Assembly: GCA_036523395.1 (NCBI GenBank)
Contig: DATDEH010000021.1
Location: forward strand, 2,175-66,174
Length of the DNA stretch: 64,000 nt
Reading direction: 5' to 3'
Source of the DNA: Candidatus Limnocylindria bacterium
GTDB taxonomy: Bacteria; Chloroflexota; Limnocylindria; P2-11E
Positions 48,233 to 56,770 of this stretch are shown in pieces; positions within the stretch are counted from its first letter, which is position 1; every line of letters begins with the position of its first letter. The notes beneath the pieces are model-generated. The model saw only the letters and a list, made by a program, of their open reading frames with translations. It searched no databases and was not told the origin of the DNA. Made by a program: the position numbers and the translations under genes.

Positions 48233-48241
48233 CATCGGCGG

Positions 48242-49108
48242 GTGAAGCTCGCGGTCATCTTCTCTCCCGCGGCCGGTCACACATACGTCGAGCTGCGCGA
48301 CTTCGCGCGCGAGGCCGAGCGCGTCGGCGTCGAGTCGTTCTGGGTCAGCGATCACTTCTTCGGTGGACCAGTGGGCGTTCCCGACCGCGACTGCCTCGAA
48401 GCGTTCACGCTTCTCGCCGCTCTCGCGCGCGACGCGACGCGTATCCGTCTCGGCGTGCTGGTCGCCGCGGCGCAGTACCGGAATCCCGCGCTGCTCGCGA
48501 AGATCGTCGCCGGCGTCGACCAGATATCGGATGGACGTTTCGAGTTCGGTATCGGGGCCGGGTGGAAGGCGGAGGAGTACCGCGCGTACGGATACGAGTT
48601 CCCGTCAGCGGGCGCTCGCGTTGACCAGTTGAAGGACACGCTCGAGATCTGCCAGCGCATGTGGACGAGCGAACGCGCCACGTACCACGGCAAGCACTAC
48701 CGGATCGAGGACGCGGTGTGCTCACCCAAGCCCGCGCAGCATCCCCATCCGCCGATCTGGGTCGGTGGCAGCGGCCCGCGTGTGATGCGACTCGCCGCGC
48801 GCTACGCGGACGGCTTCGATCTCGGCCGACGTGGACCGGCGGGCGCGCCGCTCAGCGCCGGCGAGATGGCCGCTGCACTTGCAGAAGTGCGGAAGGTCTG
48901 CGACGACGCGAAGCGCCAGCGACCGATCGCGCTCTCGCACTGGGTAAGTGCGGAGCTCGGCCCTGACGACGGATCGAAACAGGAGCTGCTCGACCGGATC
49001 CGCGGCTACGAACGAGCTGGTCTCGATCGACTCCTTCTAGCGTTCCCGCGCGACCGCGCCGGCGAGATGATCAGCCGCCTCGGTGAAGAAGTGCTGGCGC
49101 AGGTCTAG
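48242..49108 (+). CDS. LLM class oxidoreductase, probably F420-dependent
   Basis: SDHF, LAALARDATRIRLG, YRNPALLAK, GIGAGW, PPIWVGGSG. Confidence 0.88.
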   Translation: MKLAVIFSPAAGHTYVELRDFAREAERVGVESFWVSDHFFGGPVGVPDRDCLEAFTLLAALARDATRIRLGVLVAAAQYRNPALLAKIVAGVDQISDGRFEFGIGAGWKAEEYRAYGYEFPSAGARVDQLKDTLEICQRMWTSERATYHGKHYRIEDAVCSPKPAQHPHPPIWVGGSGPRVMRLAARYADGFDLGRRGPAGAPLSAGEMAAALAEVRKVCDDAKRQRPIALSHWVSAELGPDDGSKQELLDRIRGYERAGLDRLLLAFPRDRAGEMISRLGEEVLAQV

Positions 49109-52156: not shown

Positions 52157-53599
52157 GTGACCGTCCGCGTCCGTTTCGCGCCATCCCCCACCGGTTCGCT
52201 CCACATCGGGAGCGTCCGGACGACGCTCTACAACCACTTCTTCGCGCGACAGAACGGCGGAAAGCTCGTCCTCCGGATAGAAGACACCGACCAGGACCGC
52301 CTTGTGCCCGGCGCCGTGGATTCGATCTACGACGGACTCGGCTGGCTGCGGGTGACCTGGGACGAGGGCCCGCGCGAGGGCGGCCCGCACAGTCCATACA
52401 TCCAATCGGAGCGCCTGCCCCTGTATCAGGAGCACGTACAGAAGCTCGTCGATGCCGGTGATGCGTACTTCTGCTTCTGTTCAAAGGAGCGCCTCGCCGC
52501 GATGCGCGCCCAGCAGGCCGCGCGCAAGGAGATCACGCGCTACGACCGCTTCTGCCGGAACATCGACCCGAGAGTGGCAGCGGAGCGCGCCAAGACCGAG
52601 GCGCACGTGGTGCGACTCAAGGTGCCGGACGAAGGAACTCTCGCGATCGACGATCTTGTGTACGGCCACGTTGAGTGGCCGATCAATACGATCGAAGACC
52701 AGGTGCTCCTCAAGTCAGACGGTTTTCCCACGTATCACCTGGCGGTGGTCGTCGACGATCACGTGATGGGCATTACCCACATCTTTCGCGGCGAAGACTG
52801 GCTTCCCTCGACCCCCAAGCACGTCCTGATCTTCCGCGCGTTCGGCTGGGAGCTGCCACCGATCGCGCACTTCCCGAACGTGCTGGGACCGGATGGCAAG
52901 AAGCTCGCGAAGCGGCACGGTGCCACGCAAGTGGAGGAGTTCAAGACGCAGGGCTATCTGCCTGAAGCGATGGTGAACTACCTCGCGCTCGTCGGCTGGT
53001 CACCGGGTACCGAGGAAGAGATCTTCGGGGTGGACGAGCTCATCGCGCGCTGGCGCATGGACCAGGTGCATCGCGCCGGCGGGAAGTGGGACAAGGCTCG
53101 GCTTGACTGGTTCAACGGGATGTGGATCCGCAGGCTCAGTGAGGACGACCTGCTCGGACGTCTAGGGGGGTTCGTGCCGTCGGAGTGGGATCGCGAGGTG
53201 ATCCGGAGGACGCTGCCGCTCCTGCGCGAGCGGATGGCCACGCTCGCCCAGGCGCGTGACCAGCTCGAGTTCCTCTTCGCGGAGCCGCCAGCGTACGAAC
53301 CCAGATCGCTCGTGCCCAAGAAGAAAGAGCCGCAGGAAACGTTCGACGTGCTCGTGAAGTCGACCATCCTGCTCCATCACGTCGAGCCGTTCGAGCACGC
53401 CGCGATCCGCGCGGCGATCGAAGGCATCGCCGCGGAGATGAGCTGGAGCCTCAAGGACACGAGCCACCCGATCCGGGTGGCGGTCACCGGCCGCACGGTC
53501 GGCCTGCCCCTATTCGAATCCCTCGAGCTTCTCGGCAGGGAGCGCGCGCTGGCGCGCATCGAGCGCGCGCAGGATCTTCTCGAGAAAGGTGTGGACTAG
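52157..53599 (+). CDS. gltX: Glutamate--tRNA ligase
   Basis: RFAPSPTGSLHIG, RIEDTDQ, YIQSER, DGFPTYH, RGEDW, KKLAKR. Confidence 0.95.
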   Translation: MTVRVRFAPSPTGSLHIGSVRTTLYNHFFARQNGGKLVLRIEDTDQDRLVPGAVDSIYDGLGWLRVTWDEGPREGGPHSPYIQSERLPLYQEHVQKLVDAGDAYFCFCSKERLAAMRAQQAARKEITRYDRFCRNIDPRVAAERAKTEAHVVRLKVPDEGTLAIDDLVYGHVEWPINTIEDQVLLKSDGFPTYHLAVVVDDHVMGITHIFRGEDWLPSTPKHVLIFRAFGWELPPIAHFPNVLGPDGKKLAKRHGATQVEEFKTQGYLPEAMVNYLALVGWSPGTEEEIFGVDELIARWRMDQVHRAGGKWDKARLDWFNGMWIRRLSEDDLLGRLGGFVPSEWDREVIRRTLPLLRERMATLAQARDQLEFLFAEPPAYEPRSLVPKKKEPQETFDVLVKSTILLHHVEPFEHAAIRAAIEGIAAEMSWSLKDTSHPIRVAVTGRTVGLPLFESLELLGRERALARIERAQDLLEKGVD

Positions 53600-55579
53600 A
53601 TGGCCACCCTCGCACGTCGCGTCGGTCTGGGTCTCAATGCACGCGGTGACGTTTCGGACGTCGTGGCTTGGGCCGAGCGTGCTCGCTCGGCGGGTCTCGA
53701 GTCCATCTGGATCCACGACTCCTACTTCGAGCGCGACGCCGTCACCTATGCGAGCGCGGTCGCGGCGCAAGTAGCGGACATCAAGATCGGCCTCGGCGCG
53801 CTCAATCCGTTCACCCGCCACCCCGTGCTCATCGCGATGACGATCAGTGCGCTCGACGAGATGGCGCCCGAGAGGATCCTTCTGGGAATGGGATCGGCGC
53901 TCCCGCTGCGCCTCGGGCAGATGGGCATCCCGTACACGCCCGAAGACGCCGTCACGAAGTCGAGCGAGGCCATCGACACGCTGCACACCCTGTGGAAAGG
54001 CGAGCGGATGCCTTCGGGAAAGCCGGGCCTGCCGCCGCTGCAGCCGATGTTCCCGCCGGTCCATCGTGTGCCGATCTACCTCGCGGGCTACCGCTCACCG
54101 GTGATGGAGCTCGCGGGTCAGAAGGGCGACGGGTATCTGGCGCGACCCGCCGAATCGATCCCCGGGCTGAAGAAGCTCCTGCGGGTGATGAACAAGGCGG
54201 CGCGTGCGGCGGGTCGCGATCCGAACGACATCGACGTCGCGGGTTACCTGCTCGCGCTCGTCGGCGACACGCGGCGCGACGCACTCAACCGCGCGAAGCG
54301 CGAGCCGTTCGTGATCTTCATGATGAGCATCCTCTCGGACGTGACCCTGGACCGCGCCGGCTTCGAGCCCGAGCTGCGCGACCGCATCGCGGTGCACTGG
54401 CGCAAGGAGGATTACACGACGGCGGGCGGGCTCATCCCCGACGAGCTCCTCGACGCGTTCATCGTCTGCGGAACGCGACGCGAGATCGCGGATCGGGCCT
54501 GGGAGTACCACGAGGCAGGTATGGACCTTCCGATCCTGCAGCCTGTCGTTCAGGACGAGGACCAGATCTCAGCGGTCCTCGATGCCGCTGTCGCGTATGG
54601 CAGCGGCGAGGCCGGGACCGTCGCGGCCCGCGCCGCGCTCGGCGCGCAGAAGAGGAGCGCGGCGGCGAGCCTGCGCGACCGCATCGGCGCGTACTGGGAG
54701 ATCGCGCGTCCGTTCTCGTTCACGGCGTCGACCGTGCCGACCGCGGTGGGCGGCGCGCTCGCCGCGGTGGAGGGCCGGTTCGACTGGACGCTGTTCCTCG
54801 TCTCGCTCGTCGCCGGCGTCCTTCTGCACATCGGGACCAATGTCACCAACGAGATCTACGACGTGCGCAAGGGCGTGGACACGATCGTCTCGCCGCGCGC
54901 GAGCCACGCGATCGTGAAGGGACGCATCAGTGACCGTGAGGCGTACGTCGCGGCCGTCGCCGCGTTCGCGCTCGCCTTCACACTCGGCCTGTTCCTCGTC
55001 TCGGTCCGCGGCTGGCCGGTCGTCGCGCTCGGGCTCGCCGGCCTCATCGGCGGCTACACCTACACCGCGCCGCCGTTCCAGTACAAGTTCAGCCCCTACG
55101 GGATCCCGCTCGTGTTCATGCTCATGGGTCCGCTGATGGTCGTGGGGTCGTACTTCGTCATCACCGGCACGATCGACTGGAGCGCGCTCGCGATCAGCAT
55201 CCCGGTCGGGTTCCTCGTTGCGGCGATCCTGCACGGCAACGAGTGGCGCGACATCAGCGAGGACGCGCGAGCGGGTGCGCGAACCTTCTCGGTCCGGATG
55301 GGCCGGCAGGCGGCGCACTGGCTATATCTCGCGCTGGTCGTCGGCGCGTACATCGCGCTCACGGCCGCGGTCCTCGTGGGCCTGCTACCGACGTGGACGC
55401 TGCTCGCGATCCTCTCGCTGCCGCTGCTCGTGCGCCAGATCCGCAGCGCGGAGTTCGGAGCGAGCGGTCAGCAGCGCGCCATCGCGATGATCGACCTGCA
55501 GACCGCACAGCTCCACGCGGCGTTCGGCTACCTCATGGTCGCGGGGCTGATCATCGCGGCGGCCATCGCGACCCGCTGA
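53600..55579 (+). CDS. Fusion of LLM-class (Mer-like) oxidoreductase and MenA/UbiA-family prenyltransferase
   Basis: About aa 1-335: WIHD, KIGLGALNPFTRHP, PIYLAG. From about aa 360: RPFSFTAS, NVTNEIYDVRKGVD, YTAPPFQYK, NEWRDISEDARAG. One uninterrupted ORF. Confidence 0.88.
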   Translation: MATLARRVGLGLNARGDVSDVVAWAERARSAGLESIWIHDSYFERDAVTYASAVAAQVADIKIGLGALNPFTRHPVLIAMTISALDEMAPERILLGMGSALPLRLGQMGIPYTPEDAVTKSSEAIDTLHTLWKGERMPSGKPGLPPLQPMFPPVHRVPIYLAGYRSPVMELAGQKGDGYLARPAESIPGLKKLLRVMNKAARAAGRDPNDIDVAGYLLALVGDTRRDALNRAKREPFVIFMMSILSDVTLDRAGFEPELRDRIAVHWRKEDYTTAGGLIPDELLDAFIVCGTRREIADRAWEYHEAGMDLPILQPVVQDEDQISAVLDAAVAYGSGEAGTVAARAALGAQKRSAAASLRDRIGAYWEIARPFSFTASTVPTAVGGALAAVEGRFDWTLFLVSLVAGVLLHIGTNVTNEIYDVRKGVDTIVSPRASHAIVKGRISDREAYVAAVAAFALAFTLGLFLVSVRGWPVVALGLAGLIGGYTYTAPPFQYKFSPYGIPLVFMLMGPLMVVGSYFVITGTIDWSALAISIPVGFLVAAILHGNEWRDISEDARAGARTFSVRMGRQAAHWLYLALVVGAYIALTAAVLVGLLPTWTLLAILSLPLLVRQIRSAEFGASGQQRAIAMIDLQTAQLHAAFGYLMVAGLIIAAAIATR

Positions 55580-55643
55580 CCGCCGCGATACGGCGGCTGG
55601 AGACCGGTTGGTCCGCCAGCCGCCGCGCCTGCAACGAACGGGG

Positions 55644-55844
55644 TCATTGACGCTCAGCGACCGACTGAAGTGCGCCGTCGGCCGCCCGCAGCAGCTCGAC
55701 GCATCGCTCGGCGAGCTCGAGCGCTTCTTTCGAGGCGCATCCCGAGCGCGACGCGAGCTGTAGGGCGTTGAGCGCGTGGCGGTAGAGCGATCGTTGGACG
55801 GCGTGGTTGTCGCATTCGCTGTCGCAGCACTTCTGACTGGCCAT
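55644..55844 (-). CDS. Small Cys/His-rich protein (66 aa)
   Basis: Strong GGAGGAG RBS; MASQKCCDSECDNH...HAL...GC...RC. Confidence 0.65.
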   Translation of the reverse strand: MASQKCCDSECDNHAVQRSLYRHALNALQLASRSGCASKEALELAERCVELLRAADGALQSVAERQ

Positions 55845-55876
55845 CGGTCTCCTCCCTTCGCCGTGTTTTGGTCCAG

Positions 55877-55908
55877 AAAACAAAAACGCCACGGGAGGAG
55901 CCCGTGGC
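55877..55908 (-). terminator. Intrinsic terminator upstream of the Cys-rich gene (putative attenuator)
   Basis: Perfect 8-bp stem GCCACGGG/CCCGTGGC followed by GTTTTTGTTTT on the minus strand. Confidence 0.78.
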
Positions 55909-55939
55909 CATACAGCGCCGTGAGCGTGCGTCTACAGCG

Positions 55940-55987
55940 CTAGCCCGAGCTCGCCTCCCGCGTTGATGCGATGAACGGAACGGTCAT
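55940..55987 (-). CDS. Putative leader peptide (MTVPFIASTREASSG)
   Basis: AAAGGAGAG RBS before ATG 55987; stop about 30 nt before the terminator stem. Confidence 0.45.
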   Translation of the reverse strand: MTVPFIASTREASSG

Positions 55988-56152
55988 CAACTCTCCTTTC
56001 TCGCGCTCCGATGCGCGAAGGACGCAGATGTACCAGAGGCGCGCGCGGAACACAAGAGGGATTTCCACATTTCGTGCACGGCGATACGCCCACCGATGCG
56101 ATCGCCGCGCGGCGATACTTCCTCAAGTGCCTCCAGCAACAGGAGACCGAGC

Positions 56153-56770
56153 GTGAGCAAGCGCGGACCGGTCGTGCCGATCGGCCTCGCGATGGCGTTC
56201 GGCCTGTTCGGCCTGACCTTCCGCGGGTCGCGCGCACGCTTCTGGGAGCGCATGACGCTCACCGGCTTCGTGCTCGGCAACTTGGCACTGGCGAACGATG
56301 CGGAGCTACGCCGGTTGCGTTTCCGCGAGCGTGACGTCGCGCTTGGCCTGCTATCGGCAGCGGGCCTCTATGCGATCTTCCAGGCCGGCGACCGCATGGC
56401 GCGCGCGGTCATGCCCAGCGGATCGCAGGAGATCGGCGACATCTACGCGCTGCGCTCGCTGCGCCCGAAGTCCGAGATCGCCGCGCGACTCGCGGCGATC
56501 ATCGGCCCGGCCGAGGAGCTGTTCTGGCGGGGGTTCGTGCAGCGCCGTATCGGCGCGGCCGGCGCGGCCATGACATACGGCGGCGCGCATCTCGTCACCG
56601 GGAACGCGACGCTCATCGGCGCCGCGACGGTCGCGGGGATCTACTGGGGACTTCTACGGGCGATCGGCATGAGCATGCCGGCCCTCATCACCAGCCACGT
56701 TGCCTGGGACATCTGGATCTTCCTCCTCGCGCCCACCGAGCGCGAGAAAGACCCGCAGACGACGGTCTAG
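56153..56770 (+). CDS. CPBP (Abi / type II CAAX) intramembrane glutamic metalloprotease
   Basis: AEELFWRG (EExxxR), YGGAH, SHVAWD; AGGAG RBS. Confidence 0.88.
   Translation: MSKRGPVVPIGLAMAFGLFGLTFRGSRARFWERMTLTGFVLGNLALANDAELRRLRFRERDVALGLLSAAGLYAIFQAGDRMARAVMPSGSQEIGDIYALRSLRPKSEIAARLAAIIGPAEELFWRGFVQRRIGAAGAAMTYGGAHLVTGNATLIGAATVAGIYWGLLRAIGMSMPALITSHVAWDIWIFLLAPTEREKDPQTTV

Follow-up and report, generated by a model that had tools for sequence, protein, structure and literature searches.

What could be gained by joining, in a single polypeptide, an oxidoreductase of the luciferase-like (LLM) superfamily to a membrane prenyltransferase? The question is raised by a gene in a 64,000-nucleotide stretch of contig DATDEH010000021.1 (assembly GCA_036523395.1) from a Candidatus Limnocylindria bacterium of the phylum Chloroflexota; the whole of this stretch is called the window below, and positions are counted from its first letter. 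There, at 53600–55579 of the plus strand, stop codon included, one unbroken open reading frame (ORF) of 659 amino acids carries an N-terminal LLM domain and a C-terminal domain of the MenA family. The databases name the protein simply DHNA (1,4-dihydroxy-2-naphthoate) octaprenyltransferase, with Candidatus Limnocylindria as the named source, and a literature search found no paper describing an LLM-MenA fusion, so that the architecture appears to be uncharacterised, as a preliminary description of this DNA had supposed. The answer that we tentatively favour, holding it to be possible and somewhat short of probable, is that the LLM domain would be an F420H2-dependent reductase keeping a naphthoquinone ring reduced for the fused prenyltransferase, whose product MenG would then methylate, the ring itself being salvaged or supplied by other enzymes. 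The unstudied module bears on how uncultured soil Chloroflexota obtain their respiratory quinone.

Both domains are complete. In Pfam, residues 8-309 match Bac_luciferase (PF00296; E 5e-50, 171.1 bits against a gathering score of 27.9) and residues 379-611 match UbiA (PF01040; E 5e-37, 127.9 bits against 34.2), which places the two halves in the LLM and UbiA superfamilies and, together with the ORF list, bears out the earlier account of an uninterrupted 659-residue frame. The first domain (53621–54526, plus strand) is a (beta/alpha)8 barrel of the Mer-type fold and probably of the F420 class, as indicated by Pfam, by sequence matches in the PDB, by Foldseek and by its invariant columns. It is followed by the Ala-rich linker that had already been described (residues 336-353; 54605–54658, plus strand), which is unconserved, variable in length and modelled with a low predicted local distance difference test score (pLDDT), and then by the putative polyprenyltransferase domain (residues 354-659; 54659–55576, plus strand), recognised by PF01040, by TIGR00751, by a match to UBIAD1 (8djk) and by the helices of its AlphaFold2 (AF2) model. 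The AF2 model of the whole fusion has a mean pLDDT of 86.8 and a predicted template modelling score (pTM) of 0.67.

The gene is in one frame in all 60 species of the alignment from which conservation was measured, with neither a stop nor a frameshift across the linker. In this alignment the LLM half has a mean identity of 69.8% and 62 invariant columns and the prenyltransferase half 68.3% and 66, while the linker has 31% and none, spans 26-77 residues and accounts for 55 insert columns after residue 340; in other words, both halves are equally constrained and the variation is confined to the linker. An apparent internal stop in one locus (L109) was rejected, being the natural terminator.

Far from being absent from its relatives, the fusion is widespread. 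Both halves lie in one open frame in 65 of the 151 genomes sampled from the class, in four of its five families and at 58-100% identity, and in a sample of 401 genomes from the phylum there are 36 carriers (25 of 217 genera), 23 of which belong to six families outside the class (54-61% identity). A scan of GTDB species genomes gave up to 254 that encode a relative; the best 80 of these 254 are essentially all full-length fusions at 57-97% identity, and the carriers are all metagenome-assembled genomes (MAGs), one of them a closed chromosome of 5.4 Mb. The best 120 protein clusters, at 82-100% identity and nearly all of 657-659 amino acids with both Pfam domains, come from JGI, ENA, NCBI and Logan assemblies, and when 1.84 billion proteins are clustered at 50% identity the full-length fusions fall into very few clusters, which argues that the fusion is one clade. 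A word-indexed search for standalone relatives of the LLM half gave only fragments or truncated calls of this same clade. Several MAGs with near-identical fusions (L062, L079, L080, L086, L108 and others) bear the titles Bathyarchaeia, Saccharimonadales, Actinomycetota or Sulfotelmatobacter, and are probably mislabelled bins of Chloroflexota.

What kind of enzyme could the N-terminal half be? The preliminary description called it Mer-like, and this stands for the fold but not for the function. Among the NCBIfam models the LLM half is nearest to Mer and to other F420-class LLMs, although it passes no cut-off, the two Mer hidden Markov models giving 146.7 against 276 (NF002619) and 121.3 against 348.7 (TIGR03555). 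All the significant matches in a PDB sequence search are F420 enzymes, with Mer at 1e-30 followed by fHMAD, Fgd and Adf, and a Foldseek search with the AF2 model, in which the barrel has eight strands mostly above a pLDDT of 85, again puts Mer first (TM-score 0.86-0.88, root-mean-square deviation ~3.1 Å), then Fgd, Adf and FGD2, with the FMN-dependent LLMs lower. The 62 invariant residues of this half cluster at barrel-end positions and include W37, the group H39-D40-S41...E44-R45-D46 that comes after beta2, T72-R73 and R182-P183.

According to a study of 2024, the chemistry of Mer is set by Glu6, Asp96, a carboxamide at 178 and Phe233, the E6Q variant retaining 0.4% of kcat, and a non-prolyl cis-peptide at Gly61-Val62 backs F420 (PMC11094777). 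When these residues of jMer are carried over to the fusion by ungapped alignment, with the register checked at jMer P60-T63, D96, V230 and F233, the F420 back-stop is kept as Gly66-Ala67 and the aromatic residue at position B (Phe233) as Phe/Tyr240; the catalytic Glu6 is lost, its place being taken by an invariant Gly11, Asp96 is lost to Leu101, and the carboxamide at 178 is changed to an invariant Arg182. The consensus of beta1, VGLGLAARG, is without any acidic residue, and where Fgd and Adf have their catalytic His the fusion has the invariant Ser41. The LLM half is thus Mer-like in fold and probably F420-type in cofactor, and, as the catalytic residues of Mer are absent, it is not a methylene-pterin reductase. 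A reductive methylation of demethylmenaquinone from methylene-pterin, in the manner of Mer, was considered and rejected, given that MenG is present and that the catalytic Glu and Asp are gone. The earlier suggestion of coupled chemistry holds in that redox plus prenylation is the most reasonable reading; the oxygenase role that it also allowed is unlikely, as the close relatives are all enzymes that transfer hydride with F420.

The C-terminal half is nearest to the MenA models of NCBIfam. On TIGR00751 (cut-off 102.15) the full protein scores 114.7 bits and this half alone 116.7, a marginal pass, and the half fails NF004749, NF004750, NF004751, NF004753, NF004754 and NF009926; by comparison, the MenA of the men cluster in a congeneric genome (G022) reaches 195 on TIGR00751 and passes NF004751 (294 against 264), and the MenA type of the sister lineages fails all the MenA models tested. 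Its identity to the other MenA types of the class is 31-38% (37% to that of the G022 men cluster), and its best PDB sequence match is UBIAD1 (8djk, E 2.6e-21). Judged by its sequence, then, it is a divergent MenA paralogue. The AF2 model gives it an amphipathic helix and nine predicted membrane helices. Both Asp-rich motifs are present in variant form, as had been noticed: N414-V-T-N417-E418-I-Y-D421-V-R-K-G-V-D427 (54839–54880, plus strand) at the predicted cytoplasmic end of TM2, in which NExxD replaces NDxxD by a conservative change of Asp to Glu, and N547-E548-W549-R550-D551-I-S-E-D555 (55238–55264, plus strand) at that of TM6. N414, N417, E418, D421, D427, N547, E548, W549, R550, D551 and D555 are invariant in the 60 species. 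From helix parity we infer that both motifs would face the cytoplasm, as would the N-terminal LLM domain.

The context in which this enzyme would act is given by the quinone genes of its carriers, a context missed by the preliminary description, as were the gene lying downstream and the loss of F420 genes in the genus. The genome from which the window comes (3.0 Mb, 95% complete) has complex I, SdhAB and a heme A/O synthase, and with the first two it needs a membrane quinone. It holds two genes of the UbiA family only, the fusion and a CtaA-CtaB heme A/O synthase, and no separate menA, so that the fusion is its sole candidate quinone prenyltransferase. (The CtaA-CtaB protein, of 585 amino acids on the minus strand of contig C102 (L001:1423-3180), is itself a fusion, of a CtaA-like N-terminal half and a CtaB/CyoE heme O synthase.) In the same genome no MenB match lies above the cut-off, the MenC, MenD and MenH of E. 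coli find no match, MenF finds only a TrpE/PabB-like ORF at 69 bits, and the MqnA/D family has no member.

The same pattern is repeated on a larger scale. MenD lies above the cut-off in 19 of the 151 class genomes, 16 of which are without the fusion, and is found in 3 of 65 carriers within the class and in none of the 23 outside it (3/88 overall); PF02621 (MqnA/D) is essentially absent from the class. Because this pattern holds across carriers inside and outside the class, the lack of ring pathways is not due to MAG incompleteness. MenG, in contrast, is kept: the window's genome has a MenG/UbiE above the cut-off of TIGR01934 (212.7 bits), and 59/65 carriers have one against 39/86 non-carriers. 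Counting genomes individually and ignoring kinship, the association with MenG has a p of 2e-9, and that with the absence of MenD within family f3 (2/17 carriers against 16/27 others) a p of 0.002; within family f4, MenG is in 8/8 carriers and 11/42 others. In one distant locus (L130) a UbiE-type gene divergently adjoins the fusion. Thus, carriers keep the step that follows prenylation and lack those that precede it.

Some exceptions and neighbours of these genes deserve mention. The three genomes with both MenD and the fusion carry the latter alongside the classical pathway, and a separate second MenA is seen in two of them. In one of the two (G146), the fusion (C8:68094-70193; L034:7986-10097) has an in-frame TAG in the LLM half, leaving 152 + 550 amino acids, which may reflect either a sequencing error or decay of the fusion in the presence of the classical pathway; in the other (G022), a 55-kb contig (C32, L026) bears a complete men cluster (MenA, MenD, MenB and MenE), cofD and a cofH fragment, with none of its genes exceeding 42% identity to the window's genome, and has been either acquired as an island or mis-binned. 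The MenG/UbiE gene of the window's genome seems to be the first of an operon that also includes an acyl-CoA dehydrogenase and an acyl-CoA ligase (C103:6162-9798, minus strand), which was dropped as a source of the head group for want of any clear head-group chemistry. UbiX (202 bits) and a UbiD-like gene are also present and were dropped as late-pathway partners, UbiD lying in an aromatic-catabolism cluster (a benzoate-CoA-ligase-like gene, a Mo-hydroxylase and a thiamine diphosphate enzyme) and UbiX beside unrelated genes. Finally, a UbiE/MenG-like methyltransferase fused to a C-terminal polytopic membrane domain (C72:122263-123690; in the congeneric genome G004, L025:18548-19900) scores about 150 bits on TIGR01934, just below the cut-off, is conserved across the family and adjoins cofC-cofD in G004.

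The relatives without the LLM fusion offer a convergent parallel. These class genomes have a different MenA-like protein with an N-terminal domain of about 165 amino acids (FPHVVVSW..GYP.SVAT..GSHIRP.PG.GYDERRY..WGWDE..PFFEYSERS), found at loci L039-L044 (genomes G009, G024, G006, G063, G075 and G050; for example L044:8129-9535), and they are mostly without MenD and MenG. The domain has no match in a Pfam or PDB profile search, and its AF2 model is of moderate quality (pLDDT 71.7), but its best matches by fold are F420-binding split barrels of the FDOR/PNPOx type at a TM-score of about 0.5, namely Rv2074 with F420 (E 9e-5), MSMEG_6526, MSMEG_3380 and Rv1155. That two unrelated redox folds of the flavin/deazaflavin kind are joined to MenA paralogues at the same end argues for a functional coupling of redox chemistry and prenylation. 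In a protein library clustered at 50% identity, four independent proteins (P0156, P0223, P0241 and P0244) pair a sub-threshold PNPOx_N with UbiA, and other N-terminal fusions to MenA-like prenyltransferases of the UbiA family are with Cupin_2 (P0183) and BPD_transp_1 (P0197).

As regards the supply of the cofactor, CofD is present in 115/151 class genomes, whereas the window's genome and most of its genus lack cofC, cofD and cofH, with no tblastn trace of cofD or cofC in the former and CofH above the cut-off in 1/21 genomes of the latter. In G004 the fusion has cofD and cofC some 10 kb away; the window's genome keeps the syntenic flanking genes without them. It nonetheless retains an Fgd equivalog (C17:19997-20998; 433.9 bits, cut-off 420), as well as five further LLMs that score above the thresholds of F420-class models (C17:17624-18670, C17:14972-15934, C74:14566-15645, C126:2031-2891 and, in the window, 48233-49105). 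The simplest reading of these gene contents is that the genus would scavenge F420 or Fo, and this is no proof, either way, of F420 dependence in the LLM domain.

The fusion has, moreover, a constant partner. Directly 3′ of it and in the same orientation, in 89 of the 91 loci with enough flanking sequence and over the whole range of identity, there is a gene of the CPBP or Rce1-like intramembrane glutamic protease family (in the window, 56153–56770, plus strand; PF02517, 31 bits against a cut-off of 22.4), whose frame is open from 56096 and whose likely start is the GTG at 56153 behind an AGGAG motif. Its motifs PAEE.FWRG, Y..xH and SHxxWD (EExxxR, FxxxH-like and HxxxD) are at least 95% conserved in the 89 orthologues, and the partner is predicted to be catalytically intact. 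In 75/89 loci the open frame of the CPBP gene extends back to the stop codon of the fusion, the matched region lying a median of 53 nt away; a gap of some 560-580 nt is found only in the window's subclade (L048, L052-L055 and L057), the genes abutting or overlapping elsewhere. The window's genome has no CPBP paralogue, and no CPBP gene lies near the sister MenA type. Beyond CPBP no conserved biosynthetic neighbours were found, the flanks varying by family (gltX, GNAT, ABC transporter, CorA, tryptophanase-like). In the best explanation that we can offer of this gene order, fusion and CPBP would form one module. A third UbiA-family protein, of family f4 (339-341 amino acids, motif NNMINDYFD; L040:6019-7035 and L041:958-1980), adjoins an upstream gene for a rhomboid-like intramembrane protease (cluster c10), a further instance of prenyltransferase and intramembrane protease genes side by side.

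Taken together, these findings would fit a bifunctional membrane enzyme at the prenylation stage of a menaquinone-type respiratory quinone. Its cytoplasmic N-terminal domain, an F420-type hydride-transfer enzyme with the Mer fold, would use F420H2 to reduce the naphthoquinone head group to the hydroquinone, and its divergent C-terminal MenA/UBIAD1-type domain would prenylate the hydroquinone, the only form that such prenyltransferases accept; the LLM domain may also re-reduce the demethyl-quinone product for methylation by MenG. The ring would be scavenged or made by undescribed enzymes, because the sole MenA-type enzyme sits in lineages with neither of the known naphthoate routes. There are biochemical precedents: UBIAD1 is inactive without a reductant, and menadione must be reduced first (PMC4398444); in cyanobacteria and plants MenG can act on demethylphylloquinone only once NdbB/NDC1 has reduced it (PMC5299476); menaquinone is reduced by FDOR-A enzymes at the expense of F420H2 (PMC8498797); and Lactiplantibacillus plantarum salvages DHNA, building demethylmenaquinone from exogenous DHNA without a DHNA pathway of its own (PMC8837199). 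A saturation of the side chain by the LLM domain was also considered and judged, on general knowledge, to be chemically unlikely, requiring hydride transfer to unactivated alkenes.

Several points weigh against such a coupled reductase. Canonical MenA enzymes work without a dedicated fused reductase, and a simple reductase leaves the near-universal CPBP gene without a role. The parallel with the sister lineages is imperfect, as the FDOR-type fusions are mostly without MenG and CPBP. With its synthesis genes lost, F420 would have to be scavenged. The absence of MqnA/D is one established for carriers within the class, and the relative orientation of the two domains, at a pTM of 0.67, is modelled with moderate confidence only. 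The LLM half passes no curated subfamily cut-off and has neither the His of Fgd and Adf nor the Glu of Mer. In addition, the Ala67 of its back-stop is smaller than the usual Val or Ile, and a small side chain of this type cannot, according to the Mer study, press on F420 (PMC11094777).

Alternative explanations start from the same observations. The most considerable of them, which we regard as rather unlikely, is that the LLM and CPBP proteins perform real steps at the membrane on a precursor other than DHNA, for example by reducing, hydrolysing or decarboxylating a conjugated or differently substituted ring, in a third, undescribed route to the head group or towards a new quinone. LLM-MenA and CPBP would then be the membrane core of an undescribed naphthoquinone or new prenylquinone route in Chloroflexota with F420 as a biosynthetic reductant, a proposal that is equally doubtful. 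It would suit carriers in which a respiratory chain and MenG are present although MenD, MenB, MenC, MenH and MqnA/D are missing, a prenyltransferase paralogue that is distinct from the other MenAs of the class (31-38% identity) and passes only one of the seven MenA equivalog models of NCBIfam, the intact CPBP in 89/91 loci, and the in-frame stop of the fusion in G146, a MenD-positive genome with a second MenA. A survey of 26,264 genomes published in 2026 also found that the lineages without a recognisable quinone pathway are mostly Bacillota and Chloroflexota, and inferred, from Gloeobacter, an alternative menaquinone route, and perhaps further quinones, still to be found (PMC13386864). Nevertheless, no conserved biosynthetic neighbour other than CPBP was found, building a naphthalene ring takes more than two hydrolase and redox activities, soluble or membrane-bound, and salvage explains the gene pattern more simply in a genus that appears to scavenge F420 as well. 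Decidedly less likely still is a product other than a respiratory quinone, such as another aromatic lipid, a cofactor or a peptide, with CPBP acting as a true protease as in CAAX processing. The near-universal pairing of prenyltransferase and protease, the recognition of prenylated substrates by Rce1-type enzymes, the marginal pass of a single MenA model and the variant NExxD motif would all agree with this; however, we know of no UbiA-family enzyme that prenylates a protein, the strong link to MenG and the anti-correlation with MenD point to a quinone pathway, the best solved homologue is UBIAD1, and a genome with complex I, succinate dehydrogenase and heme A would be left without any quinone prenyltransferase.

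It might also be supposed that the protein is, as the databases label it, an ordinary DHNA prenyltransferase that passes TIGR00751 and whose LLM portion is an incidental, regulatory or structural appendage without catalytic coupling, which would sit well with the missing F420 biosynthesis of the genus. This is very unlikely, for the two halves are conserved to the same degree, the LLM half with its 62 invariant residues and in genomes without cofD too, an unrelated redox fold occupies the same position in the sister lineages, and the fusion persists across several classes of the phylum. As for an assembly or frameshift artefact joining two genes, it is conceivable a priori, and in a few long-read contigs the fusion is called as two pieces (L129, 550 + 118 amino acids); but a frame that is continuous in 60 species and in 65/151 class genomes, from many independent projects and assemblers, reduces its probability to practically nothing.

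The remaining features of the locus are soon described. Upstream lies gltX, for glutamyl-tRNA synthetase (52157–53599, plus strand; 480 amino acids from a likely GTG start), recognised by its N-terminal VTVRVRFAPSPTG..HIG motif and by synteny with G004. Its stop codon TAG (53597-53599) directly abuts the ATG of the fusion at 53600, with no spacer, in agreement with the earlier account of a start right at the gltX stop, and a Shine-Dalgarno-like AGGTG lies about 8 nt 5′ of that ATG. Downstream, the gap before CPBP is a lineage-specific insert of about 0.5 kb (55580–56152), which holds a Cys-rich ORF on the minus strand (55644-55892).

If we return to the coupled F420H2-dependent reductase and prenyltransferase, its interest is readily seen. 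Aerobic soil Chloroflexota that have complex I but neither ring pathway possess no quinone-type prenyltransferase other than the fusion, and the module is a concrete, widely conserved and experimentally tractable candidate for filling the quinone gap of this phylum. If the LLM domain were an F420H2-dependent quinone reductase, it would be the first biosynthetic link of cofactor F420 to the synthesis of respiratory quinones, and would extend the LLM F420 family to a new class of substrates. If both the ring and F420 were scavenged, this would help to explain why Limnocylindria have never been cultured, and would suggest supplements for the medium (DHNA or naphthoquinones, F420 or Fo). The pairing with CPBP, in turn, would give a bacterial CPBP protein its first metabolic context.

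How does the module compare, finally, with the systems already known? The partner has the PF02517 match and the EExxxR, FxxxH-like and HxxxD motifs of the Rce1/CPBP family of proteins like the type II CAAX prenyl endopeptidases, from whose known members it departs by its pairing with a UbiA-type enzyme, no paper in the searchable literature linking CPBP proteins to quinone synthesis or to enzymes of the MenA/UbiA type. Mer, the F420-dependent methylene-H4MPT reductase, is the closest relative of the LLM half in fold and in sequence (~25% identity) and shares with it the Gly-X of the back-stop and the aromatic residue at position B; the two part at the catalytic positions, where Mer has Glu6, Asp96 and the carboxamide at 178 and the fusion Gly11, Leu101 and Arg182. 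With MenA the fusion has in common the UbiA fold, nine predicted helices, two Asp-rich motifs on the presumed cytoplasmic side, the marginal pass on TIGR00751 and the co-occurrence with MenG, but it adds the LLM domain, has NExxD as its first motif, fails the six newer equivalog models and is almost confined to genomes without DHNA synthesis. UBIAD1, the menadiol geranylgeranyltransferase of animals, resembles what is proposed here in taking its ring from outside its own pathway and in strictly needing the acceptor in reduced form (PMC4398444); unlike the fusion, it has neither a fused reductase nor a CPBP partner, and the ring that it uses is already methylated, so that no MenG step follows. 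NdbB/NDC1, a type II NAD(P)H dehydrogenase of phylloquinone synthesis with a Rossmann flavoprotein fold, and FDOR-A/Ddn, a split beta-barrel, are separate proteins with folds unrelated to that of the LLM half, and NdbB/NDC1 uses a different reductant; yet it is they that would be its analogues in the proposed role, the one reducing a naphthoquinone in preparation for the next step and the other passing electrons from F420H2 to menaquinone.

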